In this document: positions 44,841 to 51,371 of the stretch, piece by piece
How the letters are laid out: the number at the start of each line of letters is the position of its first letter
Numbering within the stretch: position 1 is the stretch's first letter
Source: Planctomycetota bacterium
Lineage (GTDB): Bacteria > Planctomycetota > Phycisphaerae > WQYP01
DNA: 64,000 bases
NCBI GenBank assembly: GCA_021810145.1
Contig: JAJZJL010000002.1
Span: 4,643-68,642, forward strand
Direction: 5' to 3'
Program-made: the position numbers and the translations under genes
The notes under the pieces: model-generated
The model's database searches: none
Told to the model about the DNA's origin: nothing
Seen by the model: the letters and a program-made list of their open reading frames with translations, nothing else

Positions 44841-44892
44841 GCGTTCATTATATAGCCAGCCAGAGAATCTGGCGAGAACCGACTATTTCATG

Positions 44893-44950
44893 CCAGGCCA
44901 AAGTTAAATTATCCATTACCTGACCAAAGTTAAATTGTCCTGCTTGGCGG
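44893..44950 (-). promoter_or_regulatory. Two direct repeats of AATTTAACTTTGG, 26 nt apart, in the lutA upstream region. The first is preceded by GGACAA.
   Basis: Reverse complement of 44893-44950 reads GGACAATTTAACTTTGGtcaggtaatggatAATTTAACTTTGGcc. The same motif family recurs at ~37420, ~50270, ~50901 and ~59990. Confidence 0.4.
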
Positions 44951-45150
44951 ACGCGTGCACGAGGCTTGTCGGGCCACCATGGCAAAACGCCTGCCATGCC
45001 GCGCGAAATAACGCAGGCGGCCGAGAATCCCAACCCGCGCCACTCCGCGCATAACTAACCGTGCATCTTTCGCAAGCCAGGCAACCTGAACCGGCTGATC
45101 CGCACCTTCAGTCCTTGCGTTTCCATCGCAAAACAAGTCCGCCGTAATAT

Positions 45151-46155
45151 TCATGCCTGCCGGAACTCGGGCAGTCCGGCTCGGCGTGCAATTTCTACGG
45201 CAAGATTCTTGAAATCTTCCCGCACGTTGCCAACCGCTTGCGTATGCGCGCCCAACGCTCCGTCAGCGGGCGTCAAATGGAACATCGGCTTCCGCGCCTC
45301 CTGTGCCAATGGCATAAGACTGCGGTAATCCTTTAGCTTGGCGATGCAGTTAGGATCATCCTCAATACCAACCACCCCCGCCCCCGTCTTCCCGAGCACG
45401 CTGTTTTCATAGGTGGCGGGAATCTTGGCGATCCAACGATCAAATGCCTGCACCGGCCGGTCCAGCCGGATAGAATGACGTATGACCATATATCCGATGG
45501 TTTTAATGAGCCCCTGTGGCAGTTCAACCGCGTTGTGCGGCTGCTTTGCCAATCGGTCCTGCCACTGCTGCCGCCATTCGCGAAGGGCCGGGCCGAGATT
45601 TTCCAGCCCCTGCAGAGAAAAAAGATCTGGCCCCAGGGGAATGACCACAAAGTCACAGCCTATCAGCGCCGCGCGATTGATTGCGCCCAGGTTAGGCCCA
45701 ACGTCCACAACAATGGATTTGGCCCCGAATCGCCGTGCGGCATTCTGCGTGATGCGCCAGAGCGCTGACACCACACGAAATGATCTTTCTCTACCATCCA
45801 GACATTTCGGCCAATCCTGCGCCAGTTCATCTTCGAAGCGCGAGAGCCTCATATCACCCGGAACAAGCGCCAGATTATCCGTAATGATTTCGTAATCGGG
45901 ATCCGCTATATCGCCGACCCCGTTGATCAGCGGTTCCAGACATTGGTAAACAGTGGATGCCCTTTCACTGTGCCAAAGCGTGGTCGCCAGGGTCTCTTCA
46001 TCAATGAACGCCGCGGTCAGATTACTCTGCGGATCAAGGTCCGCCGCCAGGACTTTCATCCCTGAATCGGAGAACATCCATGACAAATGATAAACCAGGG
46101 ATGTTTTACCGACCCCGCCCTTGTTGTTAAAAAAACCAATAACGGGAATACTCAT
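45151..46155 (-). CDS. ParA/MinD-family P-loop ATPase with a ~80-aa C-terminal extension.
   Basis: Deviant Walker A FNNKGGVGKTS, LDPQSNLT, and a hydrophobic Walker B (SIVVDVGPN). 334 aa. ATGA overlap with the upstream COG2865 gene. Confidence 0.75.
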   Translation of the reverse strand: MSIPVIGFFNNKGGVGKTSLVYHLSWMFSDSGMKVLAADLDPQSNLTAAFIDEETLATTLWHSERASTVYQCLEPLINGVGDIADPDYEIITDNLALVPGDMRLSRFEDELAQDWPKCLDGRERSFRVVSALWRITQNAARRFGAKSIVVDVGPNLGAINRAALIGCDFVVIPLGPDLFSLQGLENLGPALREWRQQWQDRLAKQPHNAVELPQGLIKTIGYMVIRHSIRLDRPVQAFDRWIAKIPATYENSVLGKTGAGVVGIEDDPNCIAKLKDYRSLMPLAQEARKPMFHLTPADGALGAHTQAVGNVREDFKNLAVEIARRAGLPEFRQA

Positions 46156-47348
46156 GAACGCTTCCTCAACACCACCGCAATGTGGAATTCTTCAACCTGA
46201 AAATCCGGTGAAGGATTGCCATTCCGTTCCATTTCCTGTCGGGCCTGCGCAATGCCGAACCCGAAGCGCTGCACATAACCCAGGTGCTTCATGGCCTCGG
46301 CGAGATAGCTGTTTCGGTAATCATTCGCCCCCGGACGACCAAAATTCTCCCGTGTGACGCGCCCAAATGGTCCGCCGGGGTTTTGAATCTCCACCCGGTC
46401 GGCAAACCACGTAATCCGGATCGGGGCGTTGGTCCCTTCATAACTGCGGTGCATGACCGCGTTTCTGGCAATTTGCTGCAATGCCACAAGCGGATAATCA
46501 GGCCGGCGGATCTCACGGTCGGCGGAAGTAAAGTCAATCGCGGTTTGAATGTTGATTTTCAGGAGTTCGTCGAGACTGTTCAGCAAGATCGGCAATGGAC
46601 CGCGGATTTCCCGGGAGTCAGAAATTGGATCGCCGATTTGTCCGCCGGCAATTCGAACAAACTGAATGTATGCACCTGGAATAAAGTCAGCAGGTTCGGT
46701 ACCGAGCACCAAAATCCCACAGTTAGTAGGGCGAACCGGCACTGGGGCGGCAGCAAGCCGAAGGGCCACGAGTTGCTCCTCCAGTGTCCGATGATTTTCA
46801 GCAAGCGTCTCCGGTGATATCGCCCGGGGCAGATAGACATCTCTGAACAGTTGTTTATCCAGATTCTCAAGCGTTGCCCTGTTTGCAGTTTGCAGATCGA
46901 ATGGCGTGTCCTTGAAGCGGCGCTTCTCCACCAGCAGGTGTTCCTGCTGCTGCGACGCGATGGCCAGGCGCGGACCGATGCGGACCCACGCTGTTCCACG
47001 ATAGCGCACCGGCGGAGCCTCCGCAGGCTCCACGACGATGACAGCCACATCCCGGCCGCCGAGCACTTTTTTCTGAACCGTTATGTGCGGCAGCGGCAGG
47101 ATATTGCCATCCGTGGCTGTATCGGCAAGTGTCAGCAGCAAACGTTCCGTTATCTCCAGTCCGGCCGATTGGCCATCATCCTCAACACCGATAAAGATCG
47201 CGCCGGGCTTTCTATGGTCGGGCAGGTCGTTGGCAAACGCGCAAAGTGTTTTGCGAATTCCATCCATGTTGGAAATATCCCGCTTCCGCTCCGCGCGGTC
47301 TGATTCCGTTTCAGCAAGCAGATTTTCAAGCTCGGCATCACTTAGCAT
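46152..47348 (-). CDS. COG2865-type protein: N-terminal AlbA_2 (Schlafen-like) domain plus C-terminal HATPase_c_4 domain.
   Basis: ERKRDISNMDGIRKTLCAFANDLPDH...GAIFIGVEDDG (AlbA_2), and REIRRPDYPLVALQQIARNAVMHRSYEG...IRITWFADRVEIQNPGGPFG (HATPase_c_4). Start at Met36 (47348) with an AAAGGTG RBS. The listed ORF over-extends to 47453. Confidence 0.75.
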   Translation of the reverse strand: MLSDAELENLLAETESDRAERKRDISNMDGIRKTLCAFANDLPDHRKPGAIFIGVEDDGQSAGLEITERLLLTLADTATDGNILPLPHITVQKKVLGGRDVAVIVVEPAEAPPVRYRGTAWVRIGPRLAIASQQQEHLLVEKRRFKDTPFDLQTANRATLENLDKQLFRDVYLPRAISPETLAENHRTLEEQLVALRLAAAPVPVRPTNCGILVLGTEPADFIPGAYIQFVRIAGGQIGDPISDSREIRGPLPILLNSLDELLKINIQTAIDFTSADREIRRPDYPLVALQQIARNAVMHRSYEGTNAPIRITWFADRVEIQNPGGPFGRVTRENFGRPGANDYRNSYLAEAMKHLGYVQRFGFGIAQARQEMERNGNPSPDFQVEEFHIAVVLRKRS

Positions 47349-47805
47349 TACAAACACCTTTGTGTTTTCCCGGTCCGTTCCTTTGGACCAGACCGGATTA
47401 TTGTGGCATTCTACAGGATAATGGCCCAACCGGCAGCAGGGCGACGCGTGCAACGGAGGAATGGTAATGTTTCCGCAAGTTCGCAGTCCCGATGCCTAAC
47501 GGGAGGAGGCATCCTATGGCCGTTCGTCGCGGACGCGAAGCCAATGTGACCGACGATTCCGTTCTTGATATCGGCCAATGCGTAAGGCGTCAGCCCCCCG
47601 CCGTTTGCCCGCCGCGTTAGTTGCCCCGTCCCCATTGCGACAATAATGTAAATGCCCAACCCGGCGATTGCGTGGCGCATCACACCGCGCTTCCCCAAAA
47701 AATCGCGCAAGCCTCGATAGCACCAAAGCGCAATTCCCGCAACTGGATGGCCGGAACAAGCACTTGTCCAATGACTGAAGACCGGGCCGGTGGAAATGTG
47801 CGGGT

Positions 47806-48816
47806 TTAAAATTGCTTAAGAAATCGGACGTCGTTTTCAAATAACAGGCGAATGTCTTCAATGCCATGCTTGCGCATGGCTATGCGTTCCACTCCCAGGC
47901 CGAAGGCAAATCCGGTGTATTTTTCCGGATCGATTTTCACGGTTTCAAGCACATTGGGATCAACCATGCCGCAGCCGCCAAGTTCCACCCATTTGGAACT
48001 TCCGTCCGCATAATGAAATCGCACATCAAATTCCGCACTCGGTTCGGTAAATGGAAAGAAACTCGGACGAAAGCGGGTTTCCACATCGGCACCAAAAAAG
48101 GCTTTGGCAAACTGATCAATGCACGTTTTCAGATCCACCATGGTAATATCTTCATCCACCACCAGGCCTTCAATCTGATGGAACATGAAACTATGCGTGG
48201 CGTCAACGGTATCCGGACGGTACACCCGTCCCGGGGCGATAATGCGTACCGGCGGCTTGTGCGTTTCCAGCACCCGTATCTGCACGGAACTGGTTTGCGA
48301 CCGGAGCATAAACGGAGCCGCGCCGGATGGTCGCTGCAGATAGAAATTATCCAGCGGATCGCGCGCCGGGTGGTGCCGCGGAACATTCAATGCCTCAAAA
48401 TTATGAAATTCATCTTCGAGTTCCGGGCCTTGCGCGATGGAGAAGCCCATGCGGCCGAATAATTCCGTCAGCGCATCAATGGTTTGATGAACAATATGCA
48501 AAGATCCGGGATGATAATCGCCAAATGTGATCCGCCCCGGTTCGGTAATATCAACCAGCACCTCGGCGGAACCGGCGCTTGAGCCCAGCCGGTCCTTGGC
48601 TGCATCATAACCGCTTTGAACGGCCTGTTTGACTGAATTTAATTTGGCACCGTAAGCGCGTTTCTGATCATTGGGAAGGCTTTTGAGTTGATCGCTGGCC
48701 ACCTTCAACAGGCCTTTGCTGCCAAGATATTTAATCCGGAAGGCCTCAATCTGATCAGCGCTGCTTAAGGAGGAAAGCTCCTGCTGTGCCTGGGCCAGTA
48801 ATTCATCAAGATTCAC
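47806..48816 (-). CDS. pheS: Phenylalanine--tRNA ligase alpha subunit.
   Basis: MNLDELLAQAQQEL...FRIKYLGSKG N-terminus, class II motifs (FRPSFFPFTEPSAEFDV, GCGMVDPNVL). Confidence 0.92.
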   Translation of the reverse strand: MNLDELLAQAQQELSSLSSADQIEAFRIKYLGSKGLLKVASDQLKSLPNDQKRAYGAKLNSVKQAVQSGYDAAKDRLGSSAGSAEVLVDITEPGRITFGDYHPGSLHIVHQTIDALTELFGRMGFSIAQGPELEDEFHNFEALNVPRHHPARDPLDNFYLQRPSGAAPFMLRSQTSSVQIRVLETHKPPVRIIAPGRVYRPDTVDATHSFMFHQIEGLVVDEDITMVDLKTCIDQFAKAFFGADVETRFRPSFFPFTEPSAEFDVRFHYADGSSKWVELGGCGMVDPNVLETVKIDPEKYTGFAFGLGVERIAMRKHGIEDIRLLFENDVRFLKQF

Positions 48817-49071: not shown

Positions 49072-49440
49072 TCAGGCCGCCTTCAAACCCAGTGCATCGC
49101 GTACCTTGGCCACAATGGCGTCAAACGCGGCTGGATCGGCGATGGCAATTTCACTGAGGCTCTTGCGGTTAAGTTGAATATTGGCTTTGGCAAGTCCGGA
49201 AATAAGTTGGCTGTAACGCAAACCTCGGCTGCGCGCCGCGGCGGTCAGACGGGTAATCCAAAGAGCGCGATAATCGCGCTTCTTTTCCTTGCGGCCGCTG
49301 AACCGGTTGGCACCGGCCCGCAGCAGCGTTTCGTGCGCTGTTTTATACAGCTTGCTGCGTCCACCGACAAACCCCTTGGCGCGTTTCAGCAAACGTTTGT
49401 GCCGTTGTTTCCGGGCGGCACCGACTCTTACTCGTGGCAT
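49072..49440 (-). CDS. rplT: 50S ribosomal protein L20.
   Basis: MPRVRVGAARKQRHKRLLKRAKGFVGGRSKLYKTAHETLLRAG... matches L20. Confidence 0.92.
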   Translation of the reverse strand: MPRVRVGAARKQRHKRLLKRAKGFVGGRSKLYKTAHETLLRAGANRFSGRKEKKRDYRALWITRLTAAARSRGLRYSQLISGLAKANIQLNRKSLSEIAIADPAAFDAIVAKVRDALGLKAA

Positions 49441-49535: not shown

Positions 49536-49739
49536 TTACCGACCCGCCGGGCCAAGCAACGTGATCATCTTATCCGCAAACGGGCCGCTGAGACTGGTCG
49601 TACCGCGCAAACGCCGCCGCCGATTACCGGACTTGGCACTCTGCAAATGCCCCTTATTGTGCTTATGGAATTTGACTTTTCCAGTCGCGGTCACTTTAAC
49701 CCGCTTTTTAATTCCCTTGTGTGTTTTATGCTTGGCCAC
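49536..49739 (-). CDS. rpmI: 50S ribosomal protein L35.
   Basis: (M)AKHKTHKGIKKRVKVTATGKVKFHKHNKGHLQSAKS... GTG start at 49739 with AGGAG 7 nt upstream. The listed ORF over-extends to 49769. Confidence 0.75.
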   Translation of the reverse strand: MAKHKTHKGIKKRVKVTATGKVKFHKHNKGHLQSAKSGNRRRRLRGTTSLSGPFADKMITLLGPAGR

Positions 49740-49970
49740 GCCAAAACTCCTAACCAAATCAACGCTCAAAGCTCCAATATTCGCCCGGCCTCACGACAAG
49801 CTGCGCCCATGACCCAAGCAAATCGAGCCACGTAGTATATTCGCTTGCCCCCTCGCCGTCCACTGCTTGATCTCCCCGGCTCATTTTCCAGCCACATAAC
49901 ACATTTTTCACCAATTCCAACCGCCAACTGGCGCCCGCCCGCGCCTGTCAACAGCGCTCCGTTGAGGCGC

Positions 49971-50098
49971 TACCCGCATTCCCGATCGTCATCGGGGCCG
50001 GAAACCCGTGGCCGTTTTCGGGAATCGCGCCATCAAAAACCTTCACGTCACGCCCGCGGCCAAGGGCCATGGGATTCCCTCCCGATAGCCATCGGGGC
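49971..50098 (+). repeat. Copy A of a ~127-bp structured direct repeat (paired with 51205-51329, ~80% identity).
   Basis: tacccgcattcccgatcgtcatcgggg..ggaaacccgtggccgttttcgggaat..ccatc..aac.ttcacgtcacgcccgc.gccaa.gg.catgggattcc.tcccgatagccatcggg. Contains internal hairpins (cccgat-N4-atcggg twice). Confidence 0.7.
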
Positions 50099-50428
50099 TG
50101 CATGGTGGCGCGATTGGACGAATAACAACAATCCACCATGGCAGGCGTCGCACGCTACCGCGCGACGGCCGCGCCCGGCATCCGCAACTGCGGGTGCAAA
50201 TCCCCGTCCGTTCTCGCGAATACAGCCTCGACGACGTTCACGACACCTCCGCGTCCTGGCAAGGAGAACCTTTTAACTTGGGTTAAACAGCGGACAACTT
50301 AACTTTGGCATGCCACTACCCGTTGACTTTGCGGACTCTTCGAGATATACAGCGATCATCTGATCTGCGAAATTGCTCGCCATGCGGCGTGGCTGGCCTT
50401 TGGATCGTCATGGGCATTGAGTCACTTT

Positions 50429-50848
50429 ATGAACAGCAACAGCAAAGTCGTTAAGGATTTCATCGATACAGTCCTCAATCGTGGGGACATCGATTCCTCA
50501 GGTCAGTTCTTTTGCGATGATATGGTCGAGCAGGTTCCACTACCCGGTCAGGGTCCCGGCCTGGAGGGGCTGAAGGATGTATTGCGCGGAATGCGCGCTG
50601 CGTTTCCGGACATGCACTGGACTATCGAGGAACAAATCTGTGAGGGCGATAAGGTGGTGACCCGCTTTGAGTGGACCGGCACCCACCGGGCGGAGTTTCT
50701 TGGCGTGCCCGCCACAGGTCGCCCCGTGAAGGCGTGGGGCATGGTCATTGACCGACTGGAGGATGGAAAAATCAAGGACACCCGGATTCTGATGGATGCG
50801 CTCGGATTGATGATGCAGCTTGGTGCCTTGCCGCGCCCGCAGTCCTGA
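50429..50848 (+). CDS. SnoaL-like / predicted ester cyclase (NTF2-like fold), 140 aa.
   Basis: KDFIDTVLNRGDIDSSGQFFCDDMVE...MRAAFPDMHWTIEEQICEGDKVVTRFEWTGTH...GRPVKAWGMVIDRLEDGKIKD fits the SnoaL/COG5485 pattern. ATG at 50429 (track start 50417 is TTG). Confidence 0.72.
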   Translation: MNSNSKVVKDFIDTVLNRGDIDSSGQFFCDDMVEQVPLPGQGPGLEGLKDVLRGMRAAFPDMHWTIEEQICEGDKVVTRFEWTGTHRAEFLGVPATGRPVKAWGMVIDRLEDGKIKDTRILMDALGLMMQLGALPRPQS

Positions 50849-51204
50849 GTGTGACGCCGCCCGACCGCTTGAGCCAACGGCGATTGCCCCTTGAGTTGAT
50901 GGACAATTCGCGTTATCAGGCGGCGACCTGATCTGCGGAACTGCTCGCCGGTCGGCGTGGCTCAGTTCCGCATCATTTGGCAGCATGCATATAACGGCGT
51001 CCATCCGCCAAGACATTCTCATTGAAGCCAGTCCGGCGCGAGCATTGGCCGTGGATTGGCAGGTTGCTCGTCTGCCGGAACCGATGGGCCGAATTTCCTA
51101 AAAGCCACACAGCTGCGTTTGAGTGCAAAAGCCGTCTCATGTCCGCTACTGAATCCAGAGCTATCCCCATCCCGTAACCATCAACAATCCGCCGTGGCAC
51201 GCAT

Positions 51205-51329
51205 TACCCGCATTCCCAATCTCAATCCGGGGGGGAAACCGTGGCCGTTTTCGCGAATGGGGCCATCGATAACATTCACGTCACGCCCGCTGCCAACGGT
51301 CATGGGATTCCTTCCCGATAGCCATCGGG
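51205..51329 (+). repeat. Copy B of the ~127-bp direct repeat.
   Basis: Column-by-column alignment with 49971-50098, offset ~1233 bp, same orientation. Both copies are intergenic. Confidence 0.7.
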
Positions 51330-51371
51330 AAGGAATGACGGCGTAAAGCTTCGATGAATTGTTTTCCGGCT

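Follow-up and report, generated by a model that had tools for sequence, protein, structure and literature searches.

We analysed a 64,000-nucleotide stretch of a Planctomycetota contig (hereafter the window), in which two overlapping genes on the minus strand are placed between pheS and lutABC (Table 1). The upstream gene encodes a protein with Schlafen (AlbA_2) and GHKL (HATPase_c_4) domains, hereafter the effector, and the downstream gene encodes its partner, an ATPase of the ParA family. Both open reading frames were found where an initial annotation of this DNA had placed them, and Pfam matches for both products agreed with the domains it had named. The pheS gene occupies positions 47806-48816 and is preceded by rplT and rpmI; lutA, lutB and lutC lie beyond the pair. 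According to the ORF list, the effector frame reaches a TTG at 47453; the ATG at 47348 is favoured by the gene callers and by all homologues.

Table 1. Features of the Schlafen-GHKL/ParA locus in window coordinates.
Feature	Position	Strand	Details
Effector gene, Schlafen (AlbA_2) + GHKL (HATPase_c_4)	46152..47348	-	398 aa from ATG 47348; Pfam, family alignment
Partner gene, 'long' ParA/Soj/MinD-fold ATPase	45151..46155	-	334 aa; Pfam AAA_31/CbiA, AF2
Coupling junction	46152..46167	-	Shine-Dalgarno-like GAGGAAG at 46167-46161 within the last effector codons, then ATGA
Candidate own promoter	47408..47415	-	extended -10 TGTAGAAT, ~60 nt upstream of the effector ATG
Schlafen catalytic motif codons	47283..47306	-	E15-S-D-R-A-E20-R-K22 (Ex4ExK), from translation
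GHKL N-box codons	46449..46475	-	Q292-I-A-R-N296-A-V-M-H300; alignment A3
Deviant Walker A codons	46102..46122	-	K12-G-G-V-G-K17-T18, signature lysine included; alignment A1
Spacer, pheS stop to effector start	47349..47805	-	457 nt
Spacer, ParA stop to lutA	44841..45150	-	310 nt; not conserved between loci

The ATGA shared by the two genes (4 nt, positions 46155-46152) recurs in homologous loci: a 4-nt overlap was found in 65 of 72, with an AGGAG-like string at the place equivalent to that in the window. The effector gene may also have a promoter of its own. The string CATTATCCTGTA[G/T]AATG is kept in the three closest loci (the window, L014 and L015), with the sequence further upstream differing; a generic sigma-70 scan did not call the candidate extended -10. 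The spacer behind pheS matched no Rfam family and held no conserved element outside its last ~100 nt, and no RNA family was found in the spacers flanking the pair. A conserved third gene was also sought, and clustering of 316 neighbouring ORFs gave only Hma genes. A 74-aa ORF overlapping the ParA stop was rejected as a third gene, not being conserved.

The initial annotation had proposed that the pair replaced pheT or was inserted in its place, which the sequence around it did not bear out. No pheT-like ORF was found anywhere in the window. The operon was already fragmented, as infC, normally found upstream of rpmI, is absent from that place as well. Around the pair, direct and inverted repeats did not exceed chance, and no tRNA, integrase or composition shift was seen. 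Among contigs of the species with identical pheS, all 24 of 24 carried the pair at the same site, and thus no empty-site variant exists among them.

In the effector, a Schlafen nuclease domain and a minimal GHKL ATP-binding domain are joined by a middle region, the layout called 'Schlatpase'. Pfam matched SLFN_AlbA_2 (PF04326) at residues 15-126 (E 4.7e-13; 50.1 bits against a cut-off of 25.3) and HATPase_c_4 (PF13749) at residues 308-394 (E 2.4e-18; 66.3 bits). The catalytic motif Ex4(E/D)xK of prokaryotic Schlafens (as defined in PMC13056530) is present, and its residues E15, E20 and K22 are invariant in family alignment A2. Over 135 pairs, the first Glu was found in 129 of 130 aligned sequences, the second in 134/134 and the Lys in 122/134. 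Schlafen-GHKL modules in other architectures are experimentally established anti-phage tRNase effectors (PMC13056530; bioRxiv 10.64898/2026.05.29.728809), and by analogy the protein is most likely a Schlafen-type endoribonuclease, a tRNase. In the structure model of the effector (pLDDT 60 overall), the Schlafen domain alone is confident, and the GHKL half has low confidence.

The GHKL domain has NPGG and GxG boxes and keeps the Mg-binding Asn (N296, in 135/135 family members). The catalytic Glu four residues before it is replaced by Gln292, and Gln occupies this position in 134/134 family members, whereas all four COG2865 outgroups have ExxxN in the N-box. In RzAgo, the corresponding pair E314/N318 coordinates Mg2+ in the ATP pocket, and an E314 mutant binds ATP without hydrolysing it (bioRxiv 10.64898/2026.05.29.728809). 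Judged by its motifs, the effector GHKL domain could still bind ATP with the catalytic Glu lost. The protein ends at this domain, lacking the C-terminal wHTH of typical COG2865 proteins; the outgroups (471-509 aa) have ~90-110 extra C-terminal residues. In the alignments, only this clade, which has no HTH of any kind, shows the Glu-to-Gln change and the loss of the wHTH; the label 'RecG-like regulator' given earlier is an annotation artefact. A clade-specific Arg in the N-box yields an RNxxxH string, which prompted a comparison with the HEPN proteins of the ParA dyads predicted in 2013 (see below). No Pfam HEPN match was found in the effector, and the identity of its C-terminal domain with that HEPN was rejected by hhalign (probability 0.2% against the Rx4H partner of a sister ParA).

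The partner matched the Pfam families AAA_31 (residues 5-202, E 2.4e-27) and CbiA, and its AF2 model was confident (pLDDT 84.7, pTM 0.87). The top Foldseek matches were 3pg5 (uncharacterised DIP2308, E 1e-15), pSM19035 delta, Soj and McdA, and a phmmer search of the PDB also gave 3pg5 as the nearest solved structure (E 7.7e-26). The C-terminal extension mentioned in the initial annotation holds as far as length is concerned, the protein being ~70-80 aa longer than Soj; as an appended domain it does not, since the AF2 model is a single ParA/Soj fold with insertions. The Walker A, A' and B motifs are intact. Across the family, K12 was found in 133/135 and K17 in 131/135 sequences, and D39 and D41 of Walker A' in 135/135. 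In a variant fused to RES, the Walker A of ParA is degenerate and the Gln in GHKL is kept, which indicates that ParA hydrolysis is not required universally; compensation of a dead ParA by a live GHKL domain was not seen in it. Membership of PADLOC PDC-M28 was rejected, the PDC-M28B match (E 1.9e-5) being limited to the P-loop (residues 4-43).

The ParA/Soj fold and deviant Walker A would suit DNA partition with the Schlafen-GHKL protein as a ParB-like adaptor, and this explanation is effectively refuted by the other features of the pair. The partner scored 57.2 bits with NCBIfam ParA_partition against a cut-off of 180, and all other ParA/RepA/SopA NCBIfam models were likewise far under their cut-offs. 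The genes stand in the opposite order to parAB, and no ParB, RHH or HTH partner, centromere-like repeats or repeat arrays were found. The pair occurs once, on the chromosome, and its close relatives are not found on plasmids; a plasmid that has a sister ParA-SIR2 dyad carries its own separate parAB.

The linkage of the two genes was evaluated from both sides. Schlafen-GHKL sequence lies directly upstream in 79 of 80 ParA-baited genome loci (full length in 71/80), and a full-length ParA gene lies downstream in 67 of 67 Schlafen-baited metagenome loci with room to judge. In total, both genes occur in this order at ~150 loci from at least 12 phylum-level groups, between unrelated flanks and usually with the ATGA overlap seen in the window. 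The effector and its partner diverge in parallel (mirror-tree r = 0.62, Mantel p <= 0.002), and a single-chain Slfn-GHKL-ParA fusion (P0258) was found on 15 contigs. The adjacency is a conserved two-gene module and not chance, and the possibility raised in the initial annotation, that the genes are not neighbours elsewhere, clearly fails. Two further long proteins were set aside: P0004 (536 aa) as an internal-duplication artefact, and P0318 (690 aa), which looks like a frameshifted read-through and no real fusion.

Nucleotide homology between loci is confined to the two ORFs, the site differs even among close relatives, and the spread is patchy, with 378 of 185,579 species genomes matching the patterns used. 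The pair is a horizontally mobile module. Among the viral contigs, phage records and plasmids searched, no close relatives were found, only sister ParAs of 25-33% identity. Across phyla, the family has a mean identity of 61-64% and constant lengths, a conservation that is unusually high for a defence gene, and ~80% of loci, the window included, are flanked by housekeeping genes instead of defence islands. Synthetase genes sometimes adjoin the pair (pheS in the window, thrS in L013, proS in L199); aminoacyl-tRNA-synthetase genes were not enriched among 82 immediate neighbours.

These properties could also be read as those of a housekeeping or regulatory pair, in which the COG2865 protein would be a nucleic-acid-binding regulator, in keeping with its database labels 'transcriptional regulator' and 'RecG-like', and ParA would position it or a cargo, for example in tRNA turnover or translation control under stress in large-genome environmental bacteria. 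The high conservation with constant length, the mostly housekeeping neighbours, the presence in all contigs read of the window's species and the occasional synthetase adjacency speak for such a role. We regard it as highly improbable, given the patchy distribution, the differing sites in close relatives, the lack of an HTH in the clade, the unenriched synthetase neighbours, and the Hma embedding and toxin-bearing sister dyads (SIR2, RES, HEPN) described below.

About 20% of the pairs (14/72 at genome loci, 10/50 at metagenome loci) are part of an operon with the order HmaA-[pair]-HmaB-HmaC. The ParA gene runs with a 4-nt overlap into the HmaB methyltransferase gene at ~20% of homologous loci, which is not the case in the window, where neither Hma homologues nor remnants were found over the whole 64 kb. 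Schlafen-HK-wHTH proteins have been described as backup effectors of BREX and of DUF499-centred BREX-related (Hma / Type-1 BR) systems (PMC12839542). The defence role that the initial annotation had considered thus gains contextual backing from the share of pairs within Hma/BREX-related operons. An ordinary COG2865 protein lies between brxC and pglX in an Azotobacter plasmid.

Dyads of a ParA/Soj-like ATPase and a HEPN protein of the MAE_18760 family were predicted to be toxin-antitoxin systems in 2013, with ParA postulated to act as antitoxin through a nucleotide-dependent conformational change, and some MAE_18760-family HEPN proteins are fused to Schlafen (Anantharaman, Makarova, Burroughs, Koonin, Aravind 2013; PMC3710099). 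No experimental follow-up of this prediction was found in the literature searched. Among the relatives of the partner, full-length ParA homologues (25-28% identity) adjoin RNxAIH-ending (Rx4H, HEPN-like) proteins on Burkholderia plasmids, others are paired with SIR2 in Vibrio, Salmonella and Spirosoma, and one is fused to RES. The pairings of these distant relatives match the antitoxin prediction. PADLOC and NCBIfam profile searches gave no system-level match for the pair, and the novelty suggested for it holds in the sense that no model of either collection covers it; as a kind of dyad, ParA/Soj with an RNase toxin had already been predicted.

To compare how the two genes decay, we counted intact and damaged copies on each side. 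All 67 of 67 intact Schlafen effectors had an intact ParA, whereas an intact ParA stood next to a deleted, frameshifted or absent effector in 9 of 80 loci (0/67 vs 9/80, Fisher p = 0.004, the counts being drawn from two differently sampled collections, ParA-baited genomes and Schlafen-baited metagenomes). Three of the decayed-effector cases belong to Hma operons; there, translation of ParA and HmaB is coupled, and ParA may have been retained for this reason.

The decay pattern bears on the polarity of the switch. In the same two-component immune module with opposite polarity, an ATP-bound ParA dimer would sense foreign DNA or a phage protein and activate the Schlafen nuclease. Loss of ParA should then leave a harmless intact effector for a while; no such case was seen (0/67), and the reverse was seen in 9/80. 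We consider an activating ParA unlikely, even though an NTPase sensor with an effector is the commonest logic of defence systems, relatives of ParA are attached to several effectors (SIR2, RES, HEPN-like), and the covalent Slfn-GHKL-ParA fusion fits a sensor domain more easily than a classical antitoxin.

The same asymmetry would be expected of a selfish addiction module without a dedicated immune role, in which ParA would be the antitoxin of a toxic Schlafen RNase, the module being kept because its loss kills the cell. Such a module is in line with what was predicted for the sister dyads in 2013, with the mobility of the pair, for which no vehicle was recognised, with its insertion amid housekeeping genes and with its presence in all contigs read of the window's species. 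We find it decidedly unlikely as the full account: one fifth of the pairs form part of Hma defence operons, where they are translationally coupled to the methyltransferase gene; plasmids, on which addiction modules thrive, carry no close relatives; and a toxin gene in first position and an 'antitoxin' of this size are atypical. One module can be both a toxin-antitoxin and an abortive-infection system, so that addiction is partly nested in the explanation that we prefer.

We propose, with a probability of roughly 0.55, that the pair is a translationally coupled, mobile effector-plus-switch module of the abortive-infection/toxin-antitoxin kind, in which ParA restrains the Schlafen nuclease. The effector, without working GHKL hydrolysis and without a wHTH, would receive a nucleotide-driven switch in trans from its partner, a ParA/Soj-type ATPase that dimerises and is catalytically intact. 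ParA would hold the nuclease in check in the resting cell, presumably through physical contact with the effector and as an inhibitor rather than an activator. This restraint would be lifted when the cell is perturbed, for instance by an infecting phage, by losing the module or by a disturbance of nucleoid or ATP, and the freed nuclease would cut tRNA, its likely substrate by analogy with related Schlafens, and stop translation. Phage is the trigger that we would expect, and the module is probably used against phages.

Several observations weigh against the effector-plus-switch module. Histidine-kinase-type Schlafen fusions tested in E. coli failed to protect it from the phages used (PMC13056530). 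The conservation of the family, unusual for a defence gene, also speaks against it, as do the housekeeping flanks at ~80% of loci, the absence of close relatives from phage and plasmid collections and the fixed site in all contigs read of the window's species. The decay asymmetry comes from differently sampled collections and includes the three Hma-operon cases, the structure model has low confidence in its GHKL half, and the ParA variant with degenerate Walker A still has a Gln GHKL.

The 'long ParA' clade comprises 514 clusters at 50% identity, 3pg5 among them. A broader reading, which we hold tentatively and below even odds, is that this clade forms the common regulatory core of an unrecognised immune or abortive-infection class, in which interchangeable suicide effectors are under the control of a SIMIBI-type ParA/MinD ATPase. 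For the Schlafen branch, this would mean that the GHKL ATPase of the effector was disabled and its DNA-binding domain lost, both functions passing to ParA in trans. If this is true, long-ParA effectors would comprise the Schlafen-GHKL tRNase, a SIR2 or RES NAD+-degrading enzyme and a HEPN RNase, and through control in trans the release of the nuclease could come to depend on the nucleoid state. This would suggest that a DNA-segregation family has been recruited repeatedly to control Schlafen, SIR2, RES and HEPN toxins. Schlafen nucleases were reportedly shown to be anti-phage effectors only in 2025-2026, and to our knowledge the trigger and control mechanism of Schlafen + GHKL, the commonest bacterial architecture, is not yet known. 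With an effector ATPase that is naturally 'E-to-Q' dead and a separate ParA always present, the pair could reveal how Schlafen activity is gated. The 2013 idea that ParA/Soj is the antitoxin of RNase toxins becomes directly testable through it, and cloning should be easy, as the module is compact (2.2 kb) and has a candidate promoter of its own.

Compared with partition ParA proteins (Soj, pSM19035 delta, McdA) and 3pg5, the partner has the same fold and deviant Walker A; it differs from partition ParA in having no ParB-type protein, ~70-80 extra residues and scores far under the curated cut-offs. BREX and Hma backup effectors (PMC12839542) resemble the pair in that HmaA and HmaB flank ~20% of Schlafen-ParA pairs, whereas the embedded version described there has a wHTH and no ParA, and the window copy is stand-alone. 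Stand-alone Schlatpases are the commonest prokaryotic Schlafen architecture (bioRxiv 10.64898/2026.05.29.728809; PMC13056530), and the Slfn+GHKL supradomain in SLFN-pAgo is an ATP-controlled tRNase, ATP binding by GHKL driving tetramerisation of RzAgo into the active form (bioRxiv 10.64898/2026.05.29.728809). With Schlatpase/SLFN-pAgo and pSlfn-HisKinase, the effector has PF04326, PF13749 and the catalytic Ex4(E/D)xK in common. Its clade differs from these in having Gln for the GHKL catalytic Glu, no wHTH, Argonaute or other fused sensor, and an obligatory ParA-type partner, which is mentioned in neither PMC13056530 nor bioRxiv 10.64898/2026.05.29.728809. From the 2013 ParA/Soj + HEPN dyads (PMC3710099) the pair differs in its toxin, which is Schlafen + GHKL and not HEPN, and in the place of the toxin gene, upstream of ParA here and downstream there. 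It shares with them a ParA/Soj-type ATPase gene tightly linked to an RNase-domain gene, and given that earlier prediction the Schlafen-ParA pair constitutes no new category.

The initial annotation placed two overlapping genes with Schlafen-GHKL and ParA-type domains here, and both were confirmed by ORFs and domain matches (see the table). A spacer of 457 nt separates pheS from the first gene, which encodes the effector; the second, ParA-like gene is followed by a 310-nt spacer and then, on the same strand, by lutA, lutB, lutC, ndk, a cupin gene and a PLD-family gene. The effector ORF can also be read as a longer frame from a TTG in the ORF listing, but the ATG start is the one chosen by gene callers, shared by all homologues and consistent with a conserved promoter-like element upstream. 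A candidate extended -10 promoter, TGTAGAAT, is kept in the three closest loci despite differing upstream genes. No Rfam element was found in the window. A 74-aa ORF whose ATGA start overlaps the stop codon of ParA was called by one assembly's gene caller (L194); related loci do not conserve it, and it lacks similarity to the methyltransferase HmaB, while its start position is the exact HmaB start site in ~20% of homologous loci. Just upstream of lutA lie two tandem 22-nt direct repeats, CCAGGCCAAAGTTAAATTATCC and CCTGACCAAAGTTAAATTGTCC, 26 nt apart and adjoined by a 10/12 sigma-70-like promoter match; the repeats may serve as operator sites of a regulator of lutABC.

Positions of features in the window and in homologous loci (L-numbers), and state of the effector gene at loci with an intact ParA
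Feature	Locus	Position	Strand	Remark
SnoaL-like gene + mnmG	window	49770-51371		SnoaL-like gene divergently oriented
rpmI	window	49536-49769	-	
rplT	window	49072-49440	-	
pheS	window	47806-48816	-	
Candidate -10 promoter	window	47415-47408	-	
Schlafen-GHKL effector gene	window	46152-47348	-	398 aa; ATG at 47348
SLFN_AlbA_2	window	residues 15-126		effector
HATPase_c_4	window	residues 308-394		effector
RNAVMH (R295-H300)	window	46449-46463		effector
GAGGAAG, ribosome-binding-like	window	46167-46161	-	within effector's last codons
ParA-like gene	window	45151-46155	-	334 aa; ATGA overlap with effector gene
74-aa ORF	window	44930-45154	-	
22-nt direct repeats	window	44893-44940		
Sigma-70-like match	window	44875-44847	-	
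Long-ParA + SIR2_2	L100	4992-6847		
Long-ParA + SIR2_2	L095	4908-7922		
Long-ParA + SIR2_2	L196	1405-5880		
ParA-RES variant	L202	3814-8635		metagenomic
Solo long-ParA	L181	7989-9065		358 aa
Slfn-GHKL-ParA fusion	L199	5001-7196		
Decayed effector	L026, L029			last 40-60 codons only remain
Decayed effector	L034, L039			internal deletions and frame changes
Decayed effector	L084			internal deletion, in frame
Decayed effector	L065			no Schlafen domain
Decayed effector	L083			no C-terminal half
Decayed effector	L045			shortened
Decayed effector	L025			gene absent

The pair had been read as sitting where pheT would be expected after pheS. No pheT is present within the 64-kb window, and insertion at the pheS/pheT junction is unsupported: the surroundings of the pair showed neither repeats nor a tRNA, an integrase or a shift in composition, and the pair is in place in 24/24 contigs read with identical pheS. 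The infC gene is also missing from its usual place upstream of rpmI, and its classical position is occupied by a SnoaL-like gene and mnmG, so in this lineage the infC-rpmI-rplT-pheST cluster is broken at either end. Pairs closely related to this one (72-80% identity) occupy other genomic sites; the module has relocated on evolutionary timescales.

Database relatives of the ParA-like protein number more than 8000; the top 120 are 62-99% identical and 329-344 aa long, except for one 536-aa protein (P0004), an artefact of internal duplication. A second apparent longer form, P0318 (690 aa), was rejected as a frameshifted effector-into-ParA read-through with an Arg/Pro-rich nonsense segment. Relatives of the Schlafen-GHKL protein show 57-99% identity and mostly have 395-400 aa. 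Every neighbourhood inspected, including a gammaproteobacterial 1.3-Mb contig and several Planctomycetota, had both genes in identical order, between flanks that were unrelated. A scan with one genome per species found a relative in 378 genomes; by record title, the best 80 include Planctomycetota, Acidobacteriota, Cyanobacteria, Deltaproteobacteria/Desulfobacterales, Myxococcales, Ktedonobacteraceae, Elusimicrobia, Bacteroidetes, Lentisphaerae, Latescibacterota, Tectomicrobia, Armatimonadetes and others. At 71/80 of these best loci a full-length Schlafen-GHKL gene finishes exactly at the ParA start, with an ATGA overlap in 65/72 loci and an AGGAG-like ribosome-binding string within the effector's last codons. 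Nucleotide similarity between loci starts at the first ATG and stops just before the second stop codon, so what moves is the gene pair. Divergence of one protein is correlated with that of the other (r = 0.62, 135 pairs, Mantel p <= 0.002), and a 731-aa single-chain Slfn-GHKL-ParA protein occurs on 15 contigs. These results indicate that the module is a real, conserved, mobile two-gene unit. The single-chain fusion directly downstream of proS retains Glu in the GHKL N-box (RELVLN), unlike the two-gene clade.

The catalytic motif established for SLFN11 and for prokaryotic Schlafens is Ex4(E/D)xK (PMC13056530); the effector has it as E15-SDRA-E20-R-K22, and the family conserves it. Its C-terminal domain is the minimal GHKL fold of the Schlafen-GHKL supradomain named 'Schlatpase'; in the Schlafen-Argonaute RzAgo, ATP binding by GHKL leads to tetramerisation and an active tRNase, and mutation of E314 abolishes hydrolysis while ATP binding is kept (bioRxiv 10.64898/2026.05.29.728809). 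An alignment of the effector and three of its relatives against four COG2865 proteins of the ordinary kind, one of them located between brxC and pglX, revealed two clade-specific changes. Gln replaces the N-box Glu four residues before the Mg-binding Asn (Q292; 134/134 relatives), so that, from GHKL enzymology and the RzAgo mutant, the effector presumably binds ATP without turning it over. The 90-110-residue C-terminal winged-helix extension of ordinary COG2865 proteins is missing, leaving the effector without its own DNA-binding module. The AlphaFold model is confident for the Schlafen domain only. A clade-specific Arg before the Mg-binding Asn of the ParA-linked clade creates the string RNAVMH, which fits the RNxxxH pattern of HEPN active sites and of HEPN-like partners of sister ParAs (RNDAIH). 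No homology was found by hhalign; the string could have arisen by coincidence or convergence, or could be an element for ParA recognition that both share.

The partner carries an AAA_31/CbiA domain with the deviant Walker A KGGVGKT, and its AlphaFold model has the ParA/Soj fold throughout (pLDDT 84.7, pTM 0.87). The closest solved structure is the uncharacterised DIP2308 (3pg5), followed by pSM19035 delta, Soj, HpSoj, McdA and pNOB8 ParA. Across the family there is almost no variation at the signature lysine, the lysine of Walker A or the aspartates of Walker A'; the protein falls below the threshold of every curated ParA, RepA and SopA family model. An exhaustive search of 1.84 billion representatives returned 514 clusters at E <= 1e-30; judged by these matches, 'long ParA' is a sizeable family.

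Full-length sister ParAs (25-33% identity over ~95% of length; for example a Salmonella protein, E 1e-35) lie in accessory regions of plasmids and prophages. In three cases, from Vibrio ponticus, Salmonella and Spirosoma, the gene of a SIR2_2 protein comes after ParA and overlaps it by 4 nt; a DNA methyltransferase precedes the dyad in Salmonella Infantis and a DEAD/DEAH helicase that in Spirosoma oryzicola, and the V. ponticus plasmid also carries a separate canonical parAB. These dyads had no system match in PADLOC 2.0, and no publication on them was found. In a metagenomic variant, a ParA with degenerate Walker A (HGAVGTT) is fused to a C-terminal RES domain, an NAD+ phosphorylase domain, and a Schlafen-GHKL gene still precedes it; an RNA-ligase-family gene two genes downstream could point to RNA repair. 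Solo copies occur as well. One of them directly adjoins the cI-like XRE repressor of a lambdoid prophage integrated at tRNA-Arg in E. coli IHE3034; DNA identical to this copy is present in 109/5426 complete E. coli genomes. Similar genes are carried by Pf1 and by the P22-like phages ST160/SE1. Cargo for prophage exclusion or defence is typically found at such a position beside the repressor. Several sister copies adjoin small serine recombinases, proposed as defence-locus markers (PMC13552941).

No third gene is conserved with the pair. At 14/72 genome and 10/50 metagenome loci, HmaB (DUF1156 methyltransferase) begins at the ParA stop with a 4-nt overlap; HmaA, an SNF2 helicase, is encoded upstream and HmaC, a DUF499 ATPase, close by. 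This neighbourhood is the Hma system, since reclassified as the Type-1 BREX-related system (PMC12839542). Schlafen-HK-wHTH proteins of BREX-related systems are described as backup suicidal effectors in that study, which makes no mention of a ParA. The remaining ~80% of loci lie among housekeeping genes, including the window, where no Hma remnant was found. The initial suggestion of an accessory, possibly defensive module is partly supported: the pair is conserved, and the Hma embedding backs a defence-type role.

Direction of control was read from gene decay, using ParA (80 genome loci) and the effector (80 metagenome loci) separately as baits. An intact ParA stood beside a damaged or missing effector gene at 9/80 ParA-baited loci; the effector gene of L084, with its in-frame deletion, might encode a functional short form. 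A full ParA was present in 67/67 effector-baited loci with enough room, and at 12 further ones the contig end cuts the pair with the ParA start visible. The contrast (0/67 vs 9/80, Fisher p = 0.004) compares two differing collections, genome and metagenome loci, and three decayed cases lie in Hma operons, in which translation of ParA is coupled to that of the gene after it. One-sided decay of this kind would be expected where an effector is lost unless ParA is there and ParA can outlast the effector, which would make ParA an antitoxin-like restraint and not merely an activator. We consider it somewhat probable (about 0.55) that the module is a Schlafen tRNase effector that would be restrained by a switch, the ParA-type ATPase, with a role in abortive infection or addiction. 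We regard its main rival, in which the parts are unchanged and ParA is an activating sensor, as rather unlikely. Compact, widespread and open to direct testing, the system could explain control of the commonest bacterial Schlafen architecture.

Our literature search found no publication describing Schlafen + ParA or SIR2 + ParA. Anantharaman et al. (2013) described a dyad of a MAE_18760-family HEPN protein, in some cases fused to Schlafen, and a ParA/Soj-like ATPase, and proposed that the dyad is a toxin-antitoxin system in which ParA would be the antitoxin, via nucleotide-dependent conformational change (PMC3710099). Two Burkholderia dyads resemble that system: downstream of each sister ParA, on its strand, lies a gene whose product ends in RN(D/N)AIH, an Rx4H motif of HEPN type; this gene overlaps ParA by 4 nt in B. 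gladioli and begins ~325 nt downstream in B. pseudomallei. Because these ParAs are homologous to that of the window, whereas the window effector, unlike the 2013 toxin, is not a HEPN protein by hhalign, the pair appears to be an abundant version, by these data, of the predicted ParA/Soj and RNase-toxin kind.
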